DNA of 64,000 nt from Proteromonas lacertae (taxonomy: Eukaryota), in the NCBI GenBank assembly GCA_002245135.1, contig NGBS01000305.1, forward strand, positions 1 through 64,000. The letters are read 5' to 3'. Below, in pieces: positions 40,052-63,800 of this stretch. Both the position numbers and the translations under genes were made by a program. Below the pieces are notes generated by a model that searched no databases, was not told the DNA's origin, and saw only the letters and a program-made list of their open reading frames with translations. Every line of letters begins with the position of its first letter. The first letter of the stretch is position 1.

Positions 40052-40237
40052 GTCTTATAATAGTAGTTTAAATATTATTCTATGATTTATTTTGCATTAC
40101 TAAATTTTTGAAATTTTTAAAATGGTAAAAATGATGAAAAATAAAAATTTCAAAATTTTGAGTAAGTAAAGTTATTACTCAAATCTATTTGTTTATCAAA
40201 GAAGTCAAAAACCACTAAACATTTACTATTATCAAAA

Positions 40238-43200
40238 ATGTTGGTTATGAAGATAATTATTGCTTTAATAGCGATAATTTTGGTATCAGGAAGCTGTCCT
40301 CAGAATTGTAGTGGACATGGTAAGTGTAAATCTGATGGAGTGTGTGAGTGTAATGAAGGAATAACAGCTGGTGCTGGTGCTGGTGCTGGTTCGATGTACA
40401 TGGGAGCTGATTGCTCAATTAGAGTATGTCCTAGTGGTGATAGTTATGGAGCTGTATTGTTTGAAGGTTTGCCAAATCCTGATCAAAACTACCGTCGAGC
40501 TTTAGAAAGTATATTGGACAGATCAGTAGAAAGGAGAAGTCGAGAATTGGGTATTGCTGCTACTGAGATCAAACAAGTAAGAGATAATTTTTACCAAGTG
40601 AGTGGAGTAGAATATAAATTATTAAGTAAAGGTCAAGGTGAATTGATGTGTTATGATGAGTTAGGAGAATATAAAGGCAAAGTGAAAGTGTTTGGAAAAG
40701 CAAAAGAAAGTGATGATTATCTAATAAAATTACCCTCAACAATATCAAGTGATAATTTCTTTGAATATGACTGTCGAGTTAGTTTTGTCTATAATGATAT
40801 GAGTTTACTTAATCCAGTGGTATCTACAGAAGATACAATAACATGGGATATAAAAGATATACTTGATAAAGTAGATGTTAATGTTGATATTAATGATGTA
40901 TATTTTGCATGTATAAAAGATGGTGTTTTAACTAAATCTACAACTGATACAGCATCATCAAGAAGATTATTACAGAATAATAACAATATTGAATTTAAGT
41001 TTACTACTTCCAAACTTGCTGATGGTTTGAAATGTTATTATTTAGGTAAAGTTGAAACTGATGATACAGATGGATCAAAATTACTAGCTGCATCTGATGT
41101 TAAAAAACTCTCATCCTTTTTATTGAAAGATGGTGTAGATATTGGATTACCAAATGGAAAGAAAATGTATGAAATATACAAAAGTAAAGTTGTAACAGAT
41201 AATTTATATGCATCATTGAATTGTTATAATAAATATACAAATGATTTAATTGGTAAAACATATTTAATGGGATTTGATACTACAAAACATATAGCTAAAG
41301 TAGTATATGATTTTGATGAAGATGTTTATTATGATCCATATGATTTAAAATGTGAAATAATTGAGAAATATAATGAAATAACCTCGTTATTACCAATGAA
41401 AATAACAACAACAGATGGTTCAATAGTAAATAAAGGAATTGAAAGTGTTGTAACAATAGCTGAAGGTGATACTGTAGAATTAGGATGTTATAATCCCAAG
41501 AGTTATGAATTTACAACCTATTTATATACTTATACTTACAGGAACATTTAAGATAAAACCAGCTGATCCTCCATCTAGTAGACGTAGATTAGCAGATGAA
41601 CCAAAACCAGCTAAAGATGATATTTGTTATATTGCAGCTGGAAATGATGGTATTGTAAATGCCAAGACAATTACAACTGCTACTTCATTCTTGCAAAAAG
41701 CATTTGAATATTAACTGGATGTAGATAATAAATATAAATATTATGATGAAAATAGTATTGTTTATTTACCTGGTGAAAGAGTAGCTAATAACATTTACAT
41801 ATTAGAGAATATCACATATATTACTGGTTCAAGTGGTGCATTAATAGAATGTAAAAATGAGAATAATAATGTGATAGAAATACAAATATTACAAAAAATA
41901 AAACAAGAAGGAAATCCATTAGCAGATGTAAAATTGAATAAATATTATGTAAAATATAATAAAAACAAGATTGGAAGTGGTGAATATAAATGTGAATTAG
42001 TTCATTTAACTGATGATTTATCATTATATGAATTATCAAAACCAAATAATTGTAATGCTGCTACAATAAAAGATGGAACTCCAAATCCAAATGCAAAATG
42101 TGAGTTAAAATTAACATCAATGAGTTATTTCGTAACTGTTTTACCTGAAAATAAGAAGATGGATCTTACTAAAGATAATGATGTTAGTATTGCTTGTTCA
42201 AGAGGTGATTCAATAGAAATGTATGATTATGAATATAAAGCTCCAACACCTGATGCTAATCCTGCTAGTAGAAGATTAGCTGATGAAAACACTCCTGATA
42301 AATCTGAAAATGTTGTATTAACAATAAAAGAAGCTTCGACTATTGTTCCATCTAATAATGATATTTGTCATATTATTTCTTATACTCCAAAAACACAAAC
42401 ACCAAGAAGAGTTAGAAGATTAGCTGATCCTGCTGATTTGACTGCTTTAACAGGAAGTGATTATGGTAAATCATTATCAAATTATATCTATAAACCATCT
42501 GAAAATATCACAATTGATATTGGAAAAATAAATCATAAAGTATATGAAGTAAATAATATCAATATAATACCTGATGGAATTGATAGTTATGTTGGAGTAA
42601 TAAGTTGTAAATATGGTAATAATGAAGGAAATGGATATGTGATGGGTAAAAGTGATAATGGATATATGATATTATTTGATTTTATTAATGAGAATTCCAT
42701 TCCTTTAATCAATAGTTATAATTGTAAATTAGAGAGTAGTTATAATGATTTATCATTATATTATTCAAGTGTGATAAAAGGTCAAGGTGATAATGGATTA
42801 GGTGAATGTTATAAAGGTCAATGTGATTTAAAATGGACAGGAATGGGAAAACTATTACCAAAAGTATCATTCACTGAAAAAGAAGATTGGTAAAACTACT
42901 GTTGACAACTTTGACTACAGCATCATCAACATTGAAATTTGCATGTATGAATAAAGCCAAGAAAGTTACAATTTATGAATATACTACAGCTACTAATAGT
43001 GATGGTATTATAACATTCCCAATAAAAAACGGATAGTAATTCTTATCCATTAATTGGTCATGTATGTAATATATTATCTGGATTTAATGGTGTTACTATA
43101 ACAGCAGATAAGAATAGTGATTATGAAATAAATCCACCAAATGGAGCAAAATTGACCACCAACATTAATGATTGAATACTGCCATTAGCTGGAATATATG

Positions 43201-46200
43201 TTTAAAGTAGAAGAGATTTACACCAACACCAACTTTCAATCGGATATTCAGTTTGTAAGAAAGAAGAAGGAGATGGTAAAACAGTATCAACTATAGTTGC
43301 TATATAATTATGGTAAGATTCGAGATAATGTGGTTGATAGTTATTATATTCGATATACTGATAAAGAAGGTAATGATCTAGCTAGTTTAACACCATCAGT
43401 TATTCCAACTCCTGAATTATACAGTTGTGGAACATTTACATATTATGAAGATTTTACATCAATAATAAAAGCTACAGTTCCTGTTGGTTGTACAGATACT
43501 GCTAGTTGTGGATTAACATTAACAGGTTATGATGAAATATTGAAAGATTTAAGATATGTGAAAGATGGAGATAAATATAAAGCATCATTTGCTTGTCCAT
43601 ATACTGCTGATAAAAATGAATTGAAAGTATTTTCATATACATCAACTGATGGTTTAAGCTTTACGACTGCAGGAAGCGAATTCCCATTACCATCTTCTGA
43701 ATGTTCTTTATTATTAAATAAAGATGGAAAAACAATAATAAAATTAGAAGATAGTGAATTGACTAAATTACCTAAAATCATAAAAACAAATACTTATAAT
43801 ACTCTAGTAATTCATAATACTGTTAATGTTGATTTGAAATTAACAAGTGAATTAGGAATAAGTAAATGTTATAATAAATATTCAAATGAATATGTTGGAT
43901 ATGCAATATCCTATGGTAAAGTGAAAGATAATGAGAATAATGAATATTTAATTGGATATAGTGTTGATCCTCCAAAACCTGAATTATATAACTGTAAATC
44001 GTTTGAAGAATATTCTGATTTATCAATGTTAATAACATTCACAAAGCCAGATGGATGTACTGCTGCTAATACCTGTGAGATTACCTTAACTGGTATTTTG
44101 CCATTGATAAAGAATTATGTTGATACTGCTAAAGTAAAAGACTATACTGTAGGATGTGAAGTAGGAGATGAATTATTAGAATATGTATTAACCACAAATA
44201 TAGATGATAGAATAACACCTACACCAGCATCAGGAGGATTCTGCAGGAAGAATACTTGCTGATAATGATTTAGTGTTATATATAAAGAATAAAGGTAATA
44301 CTGAAGCTGAATATTGCTAGGTAAGATTAATAAGATTAAGAAATGTCATTTATTAATGAATGTAAAACGGTAAAACAATTAAACTAGCAGAAAGTGATAT
44401 GAGTAAATTCCCATATTTATTAGATTCAACAGCAGCTACTCCAATATATACTTACTATAGTATGAATTTGCCTTTAACTAGTTTACCAGGTAAGATGACA
44501 TGTTATAAAGAAGGTTCAATGATAAAGCTGAATTATTAGTTTATTACAAAGTAAAAGATAGTAACTTTTACGAAGTAAAGAATACTATTACTGATTTTAG
44601 TAGATTATAATTGTAAAGATGTAGTTCAATTAAATGATTTATCTCTTGTTAATCCCCTAAAAGGTAAAGTGTGTAGTGATAAAACCATAATTTGGACAAA
44701 GATGAGTAGAATATTAGGAAAGATAGGGTTTTACAAATCAAAGAAAGATAGTGAAACAATAAATACAAAATTTGTTTGTATAAAAGATGTCAGTGTTAAT
44801 TATGCAGATGCAAGTTACACATATGAAGATGCATTTGTTACTGAAGATAAAGATATTGTATTTACTTTAACACTAACAGGTGGTGAAACTTCAATTGCCA
44901 CAGATGAGGAATTGTTATTTATTATCATCATTTGATGGTGATATTATTACTAATGATTTCTAAGAGTGATGTTGGTATGAGGTTTGGATTAAAGGCTGAT
45001 ACAACTAACTTACCAACAGCTACAGCACCTGTAACAGTTGAATCAATTGGAGATGGTGGAGTATTTACTGTAACTAATGTTGATTATACACTCAATAATG
45101 ATATAATAATTAATCAATGTTATGATAGAGATACTCATACTTATTTAGGTGAATCATATGTATTGGCCTCCAGTCTGCAGCTGGTGGATATTATATTTAT
45201 TATTCGTGGATTAAAGATTCAGCATCACCAGCTGATTATGATTGTAGTGAAAGTGGAAGATATTCAGATATATCATTATTAACTGAAGTTAACTATTAGG
45301 AAGTACATCCTAAACGTAATAATGCACTTGCAATAACGGAAATATGGCTGATATTCTAACAGCAATGAAAATTACATCTGCTAGCTGCATATAATTTTGT
45401 TTGTATTAATTCAAAGAAAGAATTACATTTATATGAATATACCAGAGATAATACTAATAGTAATGTATTTAATATTAAAGCTGAAAGTGAAATAGTTCCA
45501 TATGTTAATGATAAATGTTATTTATTAGCTAATACAATAGGAAAACCAGTAAATTTATCTAAATCTGAATATGGTAAAAAGAATAATATATTTACTGATG
45601 ATCCAAATGGTCAAAAAGTAGAAACAACTGAAAAGAAAGTAGAAACTGTTGAACCAGAATCAATACCTGCTGAAATACCTAAAAGTGGAGGAATATTGAA
45701 ATGTTATGATAAAGAAAGTGGTGAATATGTTGGAACAATTGAAGTAATAGGTAAAAAGGCGAATGGTGAAGCCATAATCAAATATAATATTCAAAGTGGA
45801 AAGATGGATATTTCTGAAGAAGATTTAAGCATAGATATGTTTGAAACTGAAGTGGAAAGTATAAGTAAAGATTTGAGTATGAAAAATCCTCCAAAGTATC
45901 TTCAATATGTGAAAGTAATCCAAATCGATGTAAATTAATCTGGAAATCAATGGGTGATATTTAATTTGATCCTTTTAAACTATTGATGATGAGAATGAGA
46001 GAATTAGTAGAAAAACGATATTAAGTTGGCATGTCCAAATAAACCAGATGGTGTTTATAAAGAAGTAACATTTACATATGATGATGCTAACATTGGTAGT
46101 GATTTAGAATTAACTGTTAAGATATTACCTTCTGGTTTTCAGTTTATGCCAAATAGTCAATGTAATGCATTAGTTGATGGAGATGGAAATGAAGTTGATA

Positions 46201-47069
46201 TGACTGGTACTGAATTTTATAGTAAAGCAATGATTAATGATGAAGGACTTCCATTCTTACCATCTGATGAAAAGACAATTACAATAGGTAAAACACCTAA
46301 TAATGTATATCAAGCATTAATTACCACTTCAATAATTAAAGAATTTAGTACTGTATATTTTGCTAAGAATCAAATTCCTGTTCCAATTGATGGTTCAATA
46401 AAAAGTCAGAATTTATTAAGTCAAATATCTCTTGGAAGAACTGTAGAAATAACATGTACAGGTGGTAGTGGTAGTAGTTGCAGTGGAAATTCTGTAAAGA
46501 AAGTGATTATCGGAATAGAAAAAGATGATGATCTTTTAAAATCACCACGTTTGCTATTAGAAAATGAAAGAATATTAGCTGATTCACTTCCTGGTGTTGT
46601 ATTACAATTTGATGATTTAACAGGTTTAACAGCCGCAGCAGATTCATTCACTTTATCATTCCCCAAAACAGTTGGTGCTTCTCATTCCAAAATTGAATGT
46701 AGTGGTGTTGGAACATGTGATAGAGAAAGTGGTGTATGTAAATGTTATAATGGATTTACTGGTTCAGCTTGTGAAAGAATGAATTGTCCAAATAACTGTA
46801 ATAATCATGGAAGATGTATAAGTGGTAAAGAATTAACCGAAAAGTCAAGTTATAGTGGATATGGAAATGATGTAGTATTTGGTTGTTTATGTGATAGTGG
46901 ATATAGAGGAGCTGATTGTTCATTGAAAGAATGTCCAAGTGAAGTTAATAATGGTATAAAAGATAGAGATTGTAGTAATCATGGTTTATGTGATTATTCA
47001 GATGGAAGTTGTAAATGTTTTGATGGTTATTATGGTGAAGCTTGTCAACACACTGTTGGAACTGCTTAA
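40238..47069 (+). CDS. Giant mastigoneme-like (Ocm/Sig-type) EGF protein with ~9 internal repeats; many frameshifts (pseudogene or assembly errors)
   Basis: Signal peptide; N-terminal CPQNCSGHG..GADCSIRVCPSG; C-terminal HSKIECSGVGTCDRESGVC..CPNNCNNHG..GCLCD.GYRGADCSLKECP..RDCSNHGLCDY. The interior is broken into many ORF pieces. Confidence 0.7.
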
Positions 47070-55908: not shown

Positions 55909-55964
55909 ACTCTTATCAAGCTTTCATTACATTTTTGTCAAGATCTTTAAATAGAAGATGATAT
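55909..55964 (+). repeat. 56-bp direct repeat, left copy
   Basis: actcttatcaagctttcattacatttttgtcaagatctttaaatagaagatgatat is identical to 60198-60253. Confidence 0.95.
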
Positions 55965-56286
55965 ATGGCTATTGATAGAATGAAATAGATTTTACAAATG
56001 AGGATGAAGTTATGACACCAATATATATATAATTATTACAATAGTTGTCAATTAGAAGGAACTGTAATACCAATTTGTATAACTGATATTCAGTTAATTG
56101 AAGAGCATGAAAGAAGGAGTATTCATATGCTTTTAACAAAATTACGTTTGTAATAATGTAGAAAATGAAGATAAATAGTTCAAGCTTGATCAAACTCTAA
56201 ATATAATTCTTTAGAATTCTTAGTGTTTATTTTTGCCCAATTTGCTCAATCCAGTAAAAATAAAAGATGTATATTTTTAATTATTT

Positions 56287-59200
56287 ATGTGTAGGGCAAT
56301 GAAGAGACAAGTAGACTATACTTCCAAAAATACTAGAAAAGCTAAAAGAGCGAGAATAGCTGAAGGTATTAACAGTGAAAATGAGTTTGATAATTTTGTA
56401 GAAATCATTAATAGTTTGAGTCTTTGTGATGATGATGATAAATGTTTAAAATTTAGTGATACAGTGGATATATTTCAGTTTCCTCTAAGAAAAATTTATA
56501 TGAGAGGGTGTTATGAAGTGATGTTTAGAGACATATGTAAAAGTATGTTGTGTTATGACAATGTAGTGATAACAGGTCAACCAGGCATAGGGAAAACCTC
56601 GTTTATATATGCTTTACTGTATTTCATTAAGAATTTACGAATAGACTTTAATAAAACAGAAAAGAAATATTTATTAGAAAGAGAATTGAATAGAGAAAGT
56701 GAAGAAATAGAAGAACTAATAAAAGAATTAAATGTAAAATTTGATGAGAAAAAAGAATCACTAGAAAATGATTTATCAAGCATTGATAGTGTGATAAATA
56801 CATGTAATGTTCGTAAAGAAGAATTGGAAAAAGAAATCAAAACACATTGTGATAATCTAAAGAAGATGATAGTTAATGGTTGTATTAATATATATAATAA
56901 TTTATACTTAATAAAAAATAATAAAAAAAATTGCACATTGTACAATATCGATCAAAATAAAGATATAATACTATCAAAAGAAAAGATGCGTGAACATTGT
57001 CAAGAACGTGGATTATTTTATTTGGATAAAATTAACAGCAGTATGAGTAATATAAATACTGCTACATTTGATGTTAAAGATACAATAATGAATGATTTAG
57101 AAGAAATAGAAAATAAATATAAGAAAAAATCAATTCCATTAAAAGAAATGATTGAATTTTATATCTTAATTAAAAAGATAAATACTAGAATGATGAACAT
57201 AATCAATCTAAATTATTCAGTAAATATAAATAATGCAAGAAAGAGCAAATTAGAAAGTGATTTGGCTGGATTAGATGGTTTATATGGGAAGATTCGAGAC
57301 ATTATGAATATTTCAATGAATAAAAGAAAACAAATAACAAGTGGATTTAAAAAATGCAAAGAATATGAAGAAGAAGTAGAAGAATTAAAAGGATTTAATT
57401 ATTATTTCTTAGATGCTTTTACTAGAAGTGTTAATAAAAAAGGCAACAAAGTTACAATCAACATATTAAAAGATATATATATAGTGAAAGGGAAGAAAAA
57501 CGGAAAGAATGAAGCAATAGTATATCTATTCAAAAATGGTAAAGTTTCGAAAGTTCCAATTCAACCGTGTGATATAAATGATTCAATAATAATAGTGGAT
57601 ACATTTAATGGTACATTTGAAGGTAGAAATAAAATCATATCAATCAGTTCACCTGATCATAAAAATAATGACAAATATACAAAAAATACTACTAAAAAGA
57701 AAGAATTATATTTTGATTCATTAAATGATGAAGAAATTAAAGAATGGTTTGAAAAATGTATTGGTTTTGATGTTGATGTAAATAATGATAAATTTAAAGA
57801 GACATGTCAAAAATATGGTAATATTCCAAGACAGATTTACTTTCACTATTTATATGCAAAGAATTACAATAAAGATTATTGGAAATATTACACAGAATTA
57901 ATCGAAGGTGTAGTTGGTTGTACAAGATATAATGATTTTTTAAAGAATTATATGGATAAAGAGTATTTGAAGAAAGAAGATTCATCAAATATTTTATTAA
58001 AATATGATTTAGAAGAACAATATGATGAATATTTAGGACATAATATATTAACTCCAAAAGATCATTTAAAATTCGTTTCAGATGCTGTAGAAAAATATAT
58101 AGTTAATAAATTCTATCCTGTTAAAGATGAAACAGAATACCAAACAATAAAACAAAACATCGACACAATTGATGATGATGATAAATTTATGAAAAGAATA
58201 GCTATGAAACAAATAATAGCATATGAGTTAAGTACTGGAATTATTGAATTAGAAATGAATCGTAGGGATTGTAATGATGAAGTTACTATAATTGACAGTA
58301 ATCCTGATTTCAAATTAAATTCTGAAAAACATGTATCAATTCATTATCCAGTTGGTGCATTACATTATGTTTATTACATATTGGATGAAGAAAACTATTT
58401 TGATTTGATTATAAATGGAGTGTTTATAAAAATATTCTTAGATGATGAAGAATTTAAAGATGATGATGAATTAGGTTATATTGTTGAAGATGAAACAGAA
58501 GAAAGAATCAGAAAATCAATAAAAGTATCAATATATTATATAATATTTAATTTTATTCTAGGATTATAGTGAAGATAAAAAAGGCACATTCATGTATGCT
58601 GTAATAAAGAATTATAATCTCTATGCATATGATGTAAACTTTGTAATTGAACATTCACCAGATGAAAAACCATCACAATCCTCAGTAACAGAAAGAAAAG
58701 GAAGAGCAGAGAGAAAAATTGCAATAGAAGTTAATACAGAAGTATATGTAGATAGAAACACATTATTGATAATGAGAAAATGTTTCTATGATATGTTGAA
58801 TATTATTTGTAGAGATAAATTTAATTATGATAATCAAAGAAACTATTTGATATTTGGTCATTCTAAAATCGGAAAATCAGTATTATCACACCTTATAAGA
58901 GATTATATTCATGAACACTATAGAAATATTAGAATAGTCTATAAATATAATGATAATACTGTTTCTTATGTTAAAGAAAATTATTATTTTAATAAGAATC
59001 TTCATCCATATATTGTAATTTCTGATGGAGGAGTAATAGGTGAAGATGATTATGCCGATGCAAAATCAGTAATTCTATTAGCTAATCCATCTGAAAAAGA
59101 GTATAAAACTTTTCAAAGTAAAAGATGTCCATTGTTGATATATATACCACCATTTACAAAAGAAGAAGTAAATAAAGTAAAATTAGTTCAAGATGTAGAA

Positions 59201-60127
59201 CTAATTGCAAAAGTAGACAGTGGCATTTATGAATTCAAAGAGTTGAAAAAGAAATCTCTTATAATGAAGAAATATGATTTTTATAAAAGAAACACAGCAA
59301 CTAATGAAGAAGAATATTTACATAATTCTCATAAAGCTGTTTTAGAATTATATGATGAGAATTTTGAATATTATGGTGGTGTAATAGGAAACTATAAATT
59401 TAATGATGTTGAGATTAATAAGCTAATAGAAAGAATTGATGAGAAAATGATTGATGATATTCTAAAAGGTATTAGTAAATCATCATTATGTAAGACAAAT
59501 TATGATAATATACTAATATATGAGACATATGAAGATGATGTTACTAAATCTGGTAATCTTAGATTTATAACTGAGACAATCAGAGATTTGGTAATTAGTA
59601 AAAAAAAGAGAATTGATTGAAATGGCAGATGGAAGAGATTATGCAGGAAATTTGTATGATAAAATTGTATTATATTTGATGAAGAAAGGTGATAAATTTC
59701 AAGAGAATATTGTTAGAAGTATATCTGAAATGAATAGAGCAGATAAATGGTTGAATTTTAAAGTTGTTCCAACAAGTATAACAACAGATGCAGATTTAAA
59801 AAATGAAATTCAAAAATAAATTCCAAACATATCATGATGAATTTAAAATGCCTGTGATTGATTTAGGTTACAGACCTAATTTCCCTGATGTTGATTTATT
59901 TATTGGACCGATAGATATTCAAATCACAAAAAAGAAGTAATAAAGAAAATCCTGAAATGGGATTTAGCAGTAGAACAATAGGAAAATATCCAGAATGTAT
60001 CAAAAATATAGCAATAGAATTAAAAGGTAAAAATGCACATGATTTATTTAAATTAGCAGATGATAATAAAAGTATAATACATATTACATTCCAAGAATTA
60101 AAAAACTATGCTTACTATTTAGCATAA
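56287..60127 (+). CDS. Second Crinkler/RHS-like gene: NTPase B + NTPase A + REase-like motif (three frameshifts at A-runs in the 3' part)
   Basis: GQPGIGKT, SSPD, YGNIPR. A 37-nt intron at 58525-58561 joins in frame to GHSKIGKS, SKRCP, YGGVIG, LRFIT. After shifts at ~59600, ~59815 and ~59930 it reads GYRPNFPDVD...IQIT and runs to TAA at 60127. Confidence 0.75.
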
Positions 60128-60197: not shown

Positions 60198-60253
60198 ACT
60201 CTTATCAAGCTTTCATTACATTTTTGTCAAGATCTTTAAATAGAAGATGATAT
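60198..60253 (+). repeat. 56-bp direct repeat, right copy
   Basis: Identical to 55909-55964; similarity continues ~13 bp further with mismatches. Confidence 0.95.
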
Positions 60254-60829
60254 TTGATTATTGATATAGTAAAATCAATGTTTTTAGTTACATTTTATAA
60301 ACAATTTATATACATTTTGTAAACAATTTTACTAATTTGTAGTCAATTTTAATCGATTAAACTCTCCAATTTAATATATTAAAAAAGTTAAAATATTAAC
60401 TTGCTAAAGTGAATGCATTACTTTTCTACTGATAGAATATATTGGAATATTGGAATATAATTATTTATAATACATGGTGGGATTTCACTAAAATTAATAA
60501 AAAGGTTTTTATAATATAATAAAATTATAATAAAATTATAATAAAATATACTGATGTTGTATTATAAAATATTATAATGGATAGGCAAGATGTGACTCCA
60601 TATACATAATTTCAATAACACCAGGTAATATACATTGTTTTTGATAACCTTCAATACTATCACTTTGTAAATATAGATTAGGTTTATTATCATTCATCAA
60701 TATAAAATGTGTTGGTATGTATTCTGGTGGGTATTGAGAATTATTATAAACTTGTAATGGGAATATTATACAATTACTACCATCATTAGGGTATGATTGT
60801 ATAAGTCTATTATAATAATTATATAGTAT

Positions 60830-63800
60830 ATAAATGGGACTCTGGCATAATGTACCATAGTCCCATTTATGTAAGGTTCCTACGGGATTCCTCCCAACAG
60901 GGTCTACTTCTCAACAGAGTCTACTTCCCTACGGGGACTCCTCTAAGCTATTTCTATACCTATCTATGAGACGATCTCCTACAGGTACTCCTGTAAGCTA
61001 TCTAGAAGTGTTGGTTACCTCGAGGTGATGATTCTAATCATGCTCTTGACTCTCCTTGCTACGCTGGTGACCTTGTAAGGGCTTTTAATTGAACCGTGGA
61101 AACCAATCGTGGAACCGGGAGTTTACAATTGTTAACTTGTTACCAATTGGTAACTTCGATAGACTTGAATAGTTGAAATCATTTACCTTGTGAAGTATAA
61201 ATGGATCCAACCCAAGCAACATCTCCATTGAATGATAAAGTAGTCATAGAACAAGACTCTTCCAGGGACTTCAATTTAGCTTCTCAACTATCCCAGGTAA
61301 GCAACTACACACCACTGGTAGAATCATCCTCCGAAGGTAAGGTCAAGAGATCACATAAGGAACTTCATAAGGCAGCTGAGGATCATCCAGCTAAGAAGTC
61401 ACGGGTCAACAAAGTTTATTTCATCGAAGCACTGCTGGAGGTGCCCAAGGAAGTGATTGATCCTAGCAGTATTATAAATGTACGTATTGCTATGTTCAGC
61501 TTTGCTTACTCCGCAATCGCAGCTCTTCATCATCATCAACTCAGTAAGAACGCAGCCACTGAGAATCCCGAGATGTACTCCAAGTACTTAAGCAAGTACA
61601 TCATTAACTACCAACACCCTATAGCAAATCCAATATCATCTTCCAGGCTCATCGACTCCTTTGAAGAGAACAATAACGTGGGTGTTCACATCTATCAATT
61701 GAAGGGATCGCATTTACGATTAGCCAGACGCAGTAGCTGTACTTTACCGATGACTTCTCCTGATCATATAAGTAATGCAGATGATGATGAACGTCTTACT
61801 AATAGAGATTTTGAAGATATCATTTATGATAATGCTAAAAAGTTAGTAAGGTTTAGGTTAGATGAAATAATTGATAAAAGACTTATACCTGTAGAATGTG
61901 TGCATATGAAGTTATTTAATTGGTGTAAATCGTTATATCAACATGGACCATTTTCAAGAAATAAACCTTTACATCAATACAGTTATGAATCAAATAATGA
62001 TGTTAAAATAATAGTTGATAGATTAAATAAAGCAATTGATGAATTATGTATTGCTTCAAATTATATACTTAGGAATAATCCATTTGTCGTGCTTCATCCT
62101 AAAGAAAGATTGAATGTTGTCAAATTAGAAAATAAAAGAATAATAAAAATACAAAAAGAGACAAAGGATCATACTCATCCATTTAATGAAGAAGATGATA
62201 AAGATATATATGATAGTAATAATTATGAAGCAAATACATCAGCACCAGCAAATTCATCACATAATGTTGTAGTACGTCAATCAGCTCAACCACATGCACA
62301 ACAACAACAATCACAAGATAATAATAATGATGATAATGATGATGAAGAAGATGATAATGATTTACCTGATGATCCTTATGAAGATGATCAAGGTAATTTT
62401 TTGCCTTTAGAAGATAATTCTATTCATGCACAAACAATTCAAGTATATAGTTCAAATGCAATAAATAAGATTAGAATTTTTATAAATAAGTTACTGAAAA
62501 CAAAATTTTGGTATATAACAAATCAGCAAGAAAGAACTACATTTTCAATAGCTGTATTAATATATAATTGTGTAACAGAATTATTTTACTTAAGCAAATA
62601 TAGATCACCTAGTTTAAGAGATGGTCATGCATATCCTGAACCTGCTGATTATGATAAAAGAAATATAATGGGTTTACCTTCATCTATTTCTAATGGATAT
62701 CGAATGAATTATATAGCAACAATTCAAAAAATATTAGAGTCAAATAATATAAGGGAAGGTCAAAGAGACACAAATCATTATGCAGATGCAATTATGTTTT
62801 ATATGAATAAATTAACACAAAAGAAGAAATATATTAGTTCATTTCCACCATTATTGCCAGTAGAAGAAGCATTATCTAGAGATTATAATGGAAGATATCA
62901 AGTTACAAATCCTAATAGAGGTAATGTAAATGTAAATTTTAGAAATAATGTTGAACAACAACCAGTTGTTCCACAATTACAATCATCTCAACAGCAACAA
63001 GAAGAAGAAGAATTATCTCCTATATCTTCATCATCATTACAAGATAATCGATCTCAAAATAATAATATAGATGATAATAATGAAGATACATATAATCTTA
63101 GTTATGATGATGACAATATAGCACAACCACCTCCTTTAGTTTCAAGTGATTATAATAATAATTCACCAAGAGAGGTATCACCAGTATATTCACCAGTAAC
63201 ACCACCATTAGCTCCTTATTCTCAACCACCACAACCACCACCATCATCACAACTATCAAATACAGTTCATCATTTTAGATTTGATGGTACAACAAATCAA
63301 GTTCCTTATTCGTCTATTTTGCATATAGGAATAATGGGAATGATGATGAAACTAGTGATACAGATGTTTCTGAAACAGAATGGAATGATGAATATATTTT
63401 CCATTCACTTAAATTAAAATATGATCCAAATAGTAGTAATAATATAAATTATACAAAAATTGCTGATTTAAAACCTCCTACATTTGTTTTATATAGATTT
63501 AATGATGAATCCTAATGTAGTAAATAAACCTAAAAGGAATGTAAGAGCATTTACTCTGAAAGAATTATTACGTTATTATGCAATAGATTTATTTACTAAA
63601 GTAACTTATATATATGATATACAAGGCTATATGAATAATAAATTTAAAAAAGAAAAGATTGTAATAGTAAAAGATAATGTTCATTATGATAATTTTAAAG
63701 AATATGTAAAAAAATTCAATATTCAATTACCAATTAATACACCAGATATATCCATTTAATACATTAGATAAAAAATCACTTATGCTAAGATTATACGGTT

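Follow-up and report, generated by a model that had tools for sequence, protein, structure and literature searches.

Two Crinkler/RHS-like (CR-type) loci in a 64-kb window, the whole stretch of DNA analyzed in this study, carry the same two modules in opposite order: locus 1 reads A, linker, B and a USP deubiquitinase domain, and locus 2 reads B followed by A. We assign a probability of roughly 55% to the reading that A and B are old paralogues that were reordered by duplication and then by deletion or unequal crossing-over among tandem copies, and that their products would be nuclear, with A a putative ATP-controlled DNA nuclease and B its nuclease-dead counterpart.

Two loci with the same modules in opposite order

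The window has a GC content of 23-32% (2-kb blocks) and contains eukaryotic genes for a Vps34-type PI3 kinase, a mitochondrial carrier, adaptor mu, FUN14, and a sulfatase. At 13 of 22 close junctions between long open reading frames (ORFs), the frames were bridged in frame by an AT-rich intron, and the first-listed candidate at all 13 began with GTAT, ended with TAG, and was 27-49 nt long. Its intron size and a putative-Ig surface gene tentatively suggest a Blastocystis-like protist. In Blastocystis, human isolates are described as having 30-nt introns and 39-55% GC, and tortoise isolates longer introns and 21-23% GC (PMC12129017); we claim no correspondence with either. The A/B loci contribute three in-frame GTAT..TAG introns (31, 36, and 37 nt) that match the other 10 of the window. 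These introns occupy all three junctions near the module limits, as the original prediction had proposed; splicing in both loci is predicted from the sequence.

Several other features of the window were recorded. Positions 328-1500 hold a decayed surface-protein gene with many stops and frame changes and a weak putative Ig match (He_PIG, E 0.012). At 1566-2526 lies a large inverted repeat with 297-nt arms that are 89% identical and a best core of 177 nt at 95%; this foldback- or MITE-like element lies just to the left of a 5S gene. A large multi-exon gene with EGF-like cysteine repeats (40166-47069) apparently encodes a surface protein. The GC content rises to 41-43% at 60900-61800, and a 738-aa ORF then follows (region 60900-63417). 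This ORF received no Pfam, PHROG, or IMG/VR support, and a stretch of it resembles what we presume to be a motif of Polinton-like ORFs. Reading frames past 63300 are broken.

Locus 1 runs on the minus strand from an ATG at 10599 to a stop at 3345, in three frames, and would encode approximately 2,400 aa. Its features are as follows:

9127..10599, minus strand: exon 1 (491 aa), module A with NTPase, helical part, and nuclease-like domain (E..FPAVD..QVT..H); ORF and profile search
9096..9126, minus strand: predicted 31-nt intron, in-frame GTAT..TAG
6785..9095, minus strand: exon 2 (770 aa), charged linker, CxxC-containing stretch, and 66-aa repeats; ORF
6749..6784, minus strand: predicted 36-nt intron, in-frame GTAT..TAG
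3345..6748, minus strand: exon 3, module B, which lacks the nuclease motif and has a helical hairpin inserted ahead of Walker A, then a Pro/Gln linker and the USP; ORF and Pfam
about 4100-3420, minus strand: USP deubiquitinase domain within exon 3; PF00443, E 4.7e-15, above cut-off
10616..10885, no strand assigned: 45-bp tandem array, five listed copies, between the locus 1 start and a decayed 5S unit

The NTCYMN (Cys), HHY (His), and FND (Asp) motifs of the USP domain align with USP4. The linker repeats (198 nt, 66 aa; 7019-7499) are 98% identical and are a recent expansion inside an otherwise deeply diverged gene. The 45-bp array lies directly upstream of the ATG and is a possible promoter repeat.

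Locus 2 runs on the plus strand from an ATG at 56287 to an end at 60127, in the order B, a 37-nt intron, A, and a frame-changing tail:

56287..58524, plus strand: exon 1 (746 aa), basic leader and module B (NTPase and helical part, no nuclease motif); ORF
58525..58561, plus strand: predicted GTAT..TAG intron of 37 nt, in frame between B and A; sequence
58562..59617, plus strand: module A NTPase and helical part, Walker A GHSKIGKS; HMM of A relatives, E 6e-21
59600..60127, plus strand: nuclease-like tail in three further frame pieces, holding FPDVD..QIT; ORFs

The locus 2 tail switches frame at about 59600, 59810, and 59935, where the sequence is A-rich; NFPDVD is read in a different frame from the rest of A, past two of the three switches. 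For the middle piece, 3 of 500 shuffles scored as well against A1 (the locus 1 copy of A) and P0003, 13 of 500 against P0012, and 146-422 of 500 against the other three targets. The other two pieces, scored separately by shuffling, were not significant. Because the intron candidates in the tail are weak, purine-rich, 68-76% AT, or over-long, odd splicing, assembly error, and decay are indistinguishable here; the 3' end of locus 2 is probably either in decay or mis-assembled. A TGTT(G)TTTTT-like motif that follows both the FUN14 stop (55778) and the locus 2 stop (60160) is perhaps a 3'-end signal, and it is common throughout the AT-rich window.

Modules A and B as two NTPase subfamilies

All motifs originally listed for modules A and B were present in both loci, and the proposal that like modules are closer than unlike ones held. 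By blastp, the A copies of loci 1 and 2 (A1 and A2) scored 68.9 bits (30% identity over 147 aa) and the B copies (B1 and B2) 58-62 bits (35% over 134 aa), versus at most 37 bits for A-B pairs. The shuffle z-scores were 18.3 for A-A and 13.3 for B-B, and 8.6, 5.5, 2.0, and 1.5 for the four A-B pairs. HMMs derived solely from relatives outside the window sorted its copies into the same two groups as blastp and the tree: the A HMM scored A1 at 198, A2 at 71, and B1 at 22 bits, with B2 absent from the matches listed, and the B HMM scored B1 at 158 and B2 at 77 bits, with A absent from the matches listed.

The 17-row tree, in which A1, A2, and B2 have long branches, supported the B clade at 99/99 and the separation of A from B plus P0012 at 100/99. 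The two copies of locus 1, or those of locus 2, formed one side of a branch in none of 200 bootstrap trees. The AU test, run on 15 of the 17 rows with the two longest outside rows left out, rejected both A1+B1 (p 4.5e-6) and A2+B2 (p 1.9e-4). An independent duplication inside each locus was rejected by the same test. The A and B profiles aligned over 286 columns (hhalign 99.2%, E 9.3e-20); this alignment starts at the strand preceding Walker A, spans the NTPase and helical part, and reaches the first nuclease-region helix. P0012 matched all four copies. These comparisons indicate that A and B are two old subfamilies, or paralogous copies, of one STAND-like NTPase unit. The swapped order would thus be a permutation of a tandem duplication and not a shuffle of unrelated domains.

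The family had been described as recombining. This description stands for an old event but does not extend to ongoing exchange: the loci share 30-35% protein identity and self-blastn found no DNA match between them at E<1e-4, so the order swap is old. At third positions, 6 and 4 sites could be compared, too few for dating the split or for a dN/dS estimate.

The predicted difference in the position of the B inserts was likewise confirmed. Before Walker A, B1 carries 79 aa versus 12 in B2; after Walker A, B2 has an insert of approximately 280 aa, and its Walker A and Walker B lie 332 aa apart, versus 61 aa in B1. The B1 insert is a helical hairpin in the structure model. Inserts before Walker A measured 41 aa in P0022, 79 aa in B1, and 268 aa in P0023; homology among the B inserts was rejected, with 37, 21, and 241 of 500 shuffles scoring as well. 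The claim that the Walker A of module A is non-canonical falls, because GNRLIGKT and GHSKIGKS both match G-x4-GK[ST]. This pattern, the P-loop criterion of CR-type proteins, was found in all four copies and in 9 of the 10 A-clade relatives showing a Walker A. Walker B is odd in A1, which has E where its relatives have D.

The AlphaFold models had a mean pLDDT of 59.5 (A1) and 52.9 (B1) and were confident over the NTPase core only (76-88 for A1 residues 71-210; mostly 33-54 in the A1 nuclease region). In Foldseek, both models matched STAND/AAA+ proteins, the best being the STAND protein Avs4 (E 6e-5 and 5e-5, with a low TM of about 0.2), and weak nSTAND3 matches were obtained for at least 10 of 19 and for 4 of 7 alignment members. 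A wide fold search with A1 listed no nuclease fold, its results being dominated by the A1 C-terminal helices. The motif FP.xD..[QK]xT occurs in A1 and in all 10 A-type representatives that reach the region, with a following H in 9 of the 10. Neither B1 nor B2 has it, nor does the only full-length B cluster (P0021/23/24); P0022 and P0025 stop short of the region. The E..FP.xD..QxT..H pattern, conserved in A1 and its relatives, may be the CR-REase catalytic site, a reading based partly on the Atlas placement. Module A is likely a nuclease-type unit and module B its nuclease-dead partner, as predicted from these motifs.

In the Atlas, where placement reflects feature similarity without alignment or E-value, A1 and the B relative P0023 scored 0.96 with a CRN cluster, 13% of whose members carry RHSP, and 0.90-0.91 with RHS clusters. 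Pfam RHSP (PF07999), RHS_N/PF20445, and Crinkler PF20147 were not among the families listed at E<=0.1 for the window ORFs and the A and B alignment members, one listing covering the first 25 of 31 families. The LxLFLAK header was absent from the five window exons and 11 relatives, and the five exons contained no hydrophobic or signal-like N-terminus and no transmembrane stretch. The loci resemble CR-type proteins but are neither strict CRN, for lack of the header, nor RHS by Pfam. Of the original phrase "recombining modular effector family," a modular CR-type family with swapped order is retained, whereas the effector part finds no support. Clusters of K[KR]x[KR], which are common in lysine-rich proteins generally, were seen in each of the five exons and also in 4 of the 11 leaders from relatives; these short basic clusters look like nuclear localization signals, and a nuclear role appears the more likely one.

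At E<=0.001, a full HMMER scan with A1 recovered 13 relatives; searching with the B1 region recovered 2. All 15 representatives and the listed cluster members were Logan proteins on contigs of <5 kb. Word-based searches for homologues, started from A1 or from the A alignment, gave no matches, which reflects their sensitivity, given the 13 relatives from HMMER. No related loci were found in JGI metagenomes (A and B), IMG/VR (A), or GTDB (B), and a PDB sequence search with the A profile reached E>=0.2 at best. The leaders of the relatives were 20-218 aa long and unalignable.

Flanking repeats and the origin of the order swap

Once the tandem arrays within locus 1 and a single inverted repeat are set aside, self-blastn of the window revealed only two dispersed direct repeats, each bracketing one CR gene. 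The four repeat copies are as follows:

55909..55986, plus strand: left member of a 78-bp direct-repeat pair, 300 nt upstream of the locus 2 ATG
60198..60275, plus strand: right member of the 78-bp pair, 70 nt downstream of the locus 2 stop
2900..3237, plus strand: left locus 1 repeat, an intact 5S rRNA gene (3069-3187) with flanks; Rfam, 88 bits
10874..11109, plus strand: right locus 1 repeat, a decayed copy of the 5S unit; self-blastn

The 78-bp copies are identical at 56 of 56 positions and then match at 16 of 22; they gave no RNA fold signal (z 0.2-0.9) and no Rfam match. The decayed 5S copy, which had no Rfam match, consists of the upstream flank, a deleted 5' half, the 3' half, and the downstream flank, and its blocks match the intact unit at 47/57, 40/51, and 84/110 positions (76-82% identical). 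The slack between locus 1 and its repeats is 107 and 274 nt. The repeats scored 93 and 114 bits versus a best of 67 bits in 20 simulated windows, and the probability that random placement would enclose both genes, computed after the pattern was seen, is approximately 4e-5.

Under the reordering of tandem copies that we favor, an old duplication would have produced A, which kept the nuclease motif, and B, which lost it. A tandem (A-B)n array would then have been rearranged by deletion or unequal crossing-over, so that the B of one unit was joined to the next A, and the flanking direct repeats may be scars of this amplification and collapse. Mosaicism by unequal crossing-over is described for the RHS family (PMC7563717, in part). 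Both loci would be spliced into single proteins acting on DNA in the nucleus, and the USP domain might undo ubiquitin-based removal of the locus 1 protein.

The architecture is known from two loci, and the two-locus data are fitted equally well by two separate fusions of free A and B genes. In this main rival, intron-mediated exon shuffling would have joined free genes or first exons in two independent events, giving A-linker-B-USP in one and B-A in the other. Introns lie at or near module limits in both loci, and B relatives begin close to the IFQYP motif. All 10 A-type representatives that reach the nuclease end carry V[YL] at one fixed site, after which comes a run rich in I/Y/F/L; in 9 of the 10 the protein stops within 25 residues, as would be expected for read-through into a common intron judging from the protein; such an intron-like tail in every one supports a modular exon. 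However, each locus contains a single A and a single B, which points to an inherited pair, the A1 intron lies 83 aa past the nuclease motif and off the common intron-like site, and the three predicted introns, as read from the sequence, are not all of one phase. We regard a double fusion as unlikely, although it deserves the most serious consideration among the alternatives.

The bracketing repeats also raise the possibility of self-mobilizing cassettes of CR-type NTPase-nuclease units. The nuclease would cut a target, a circular copy would integrate by a single crossover and duplicate that target (the 5S unit or the 78-bp site), a re-opened circle would permute A-B to B-A, and the nuclease-dead B and USP would serve as built-in control or protection. 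Both genes, with nothing else coding found, lie between the only dispersed repeat pairs of the window, the locus 2 pair is identical over 56 of 56 positions though the CR genes are deeply diverged, and NTPase+REase units have been linked to mobile elements (PMC5289972 and PMC11342252, in part). The units nevertheless share no terminal sequence by self-blastn, and a Pfam scan found no transposase, integrase, or reverse transcriptase family in either. The two repeat pairs are of different types and sizes (78 bp versus approximately 340 bp with deletions), and both genes retain introns. We judge this scenario improbable; if true, it would provide a living eukaryotic case of the transposon stage proposed as the origin of Crinkler/RHS proteins.

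It is more doubtful still that the loci encode secreted effectors acting on host or competitor cells and diversified by shuffling. The CR-family likeness in the Atlas is in keeping with this idea, the combination of nuclease and deubiquitinase recalls Wolbachia CifB/CidB (PMC11342252, in part), RHS proteins have been found in trypanosome secretomes (PMC7563717, in part), and CRNs are said to need no hydrophobic N-terminus (PMC5289972, in part). Against it stand the absence of LxLFLAK and of any signal-like or membrane stretch, the unalignable leaders of the relatives, and a locus 1 protein of approximately 2,400 aa. Finally, that A and B are separate neighboring genes, or that locus 2 is an assembly artefact and the swap one of gene order only, is very improbable despite the predicted nature of the splicing and the three frame changes in the A-rich tail, for an in-frame GTAT..TAG intron of the size usual in the window is present at each of the three junctions, and the frames leave no intergenic space between them.

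Relation to known Crinkler and RHS systems

The loci resemble the CR NTPase+HTH+REase proteins (PMC5289972, review of Zhang et al. 2016) in their STAND-like P-loop NTPase, helical part, and nuclease-type motif, and also in an accessory peptidase domain and in having CRN and RHS as their nearest Atlas clusters. They differ from these proteins in having two NTPase units, in either order, one of which is without the nuclease motif, and in lacking the Ubl/LxLFLAK header. Their peptidase is a USP, whereas the review lists trypsin, zincin, and Ulp1. With trypanosome RHS proteins, as described in PMC7563717, the loci share a related NTPase unit by Atlas features (0.90-0.91) and membership in a mosaic family, formed there by unequal crossing-over and containing many broken copies. 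In contrast, the window copies are 30-35% identical and RHS copies 75-100%, the change in the window is a swap of whole-unit order and not a patchwork, and the window genes had no PF07999/PF20445 match and no retrotransposon inside.

Wolbachia CifB/CidB and Tribolium Medea1 offer analogies only. CifB combines active and inactive nuclease-type domains with a deubiquitinase, and Tribolium Medea1 is a selfish unit of CR-type NTPase and REase; CifB has four REases without interleaved NTPases and carries Ulp1/OTU instead of USP (PMC11342252). No antidote gene was seen at the window loci. AACRNL (PMC12957317), a Crinkler-like gene with a degenerate header, spreads within its own genome and is counteracted by ubiquitination; its payload is an ADP-ribosyltransferase, and it is carried by hAT/mariner inverted repeats, unlike the window loci with their direct repeats and no transposon ends. 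A nuclear role of the window genes is in line with the nuclear location of RHS proteins in trypanosomes (PMC7563717) and with the selfish AACRNL (PMC12957317).

Our literature searches yielded neither a twin-NTPase layout (nuclease-positive and nuclease-negative, in either order, with USP) nor repeat-bracketed CR genes, and the supplements of Zhang 2016 may list twin-NTPase forms. Because shuffling in the Crinkler/RHS families is well known, the order swap alone is modest news. The loci represent an architectural variant of a known shuffle-prone family, with a hint of possible cassette-like mobility, and their bracketing direct repeats bear on whether CR-type NTPase-nuclease genes still move alone in a eukaryote.
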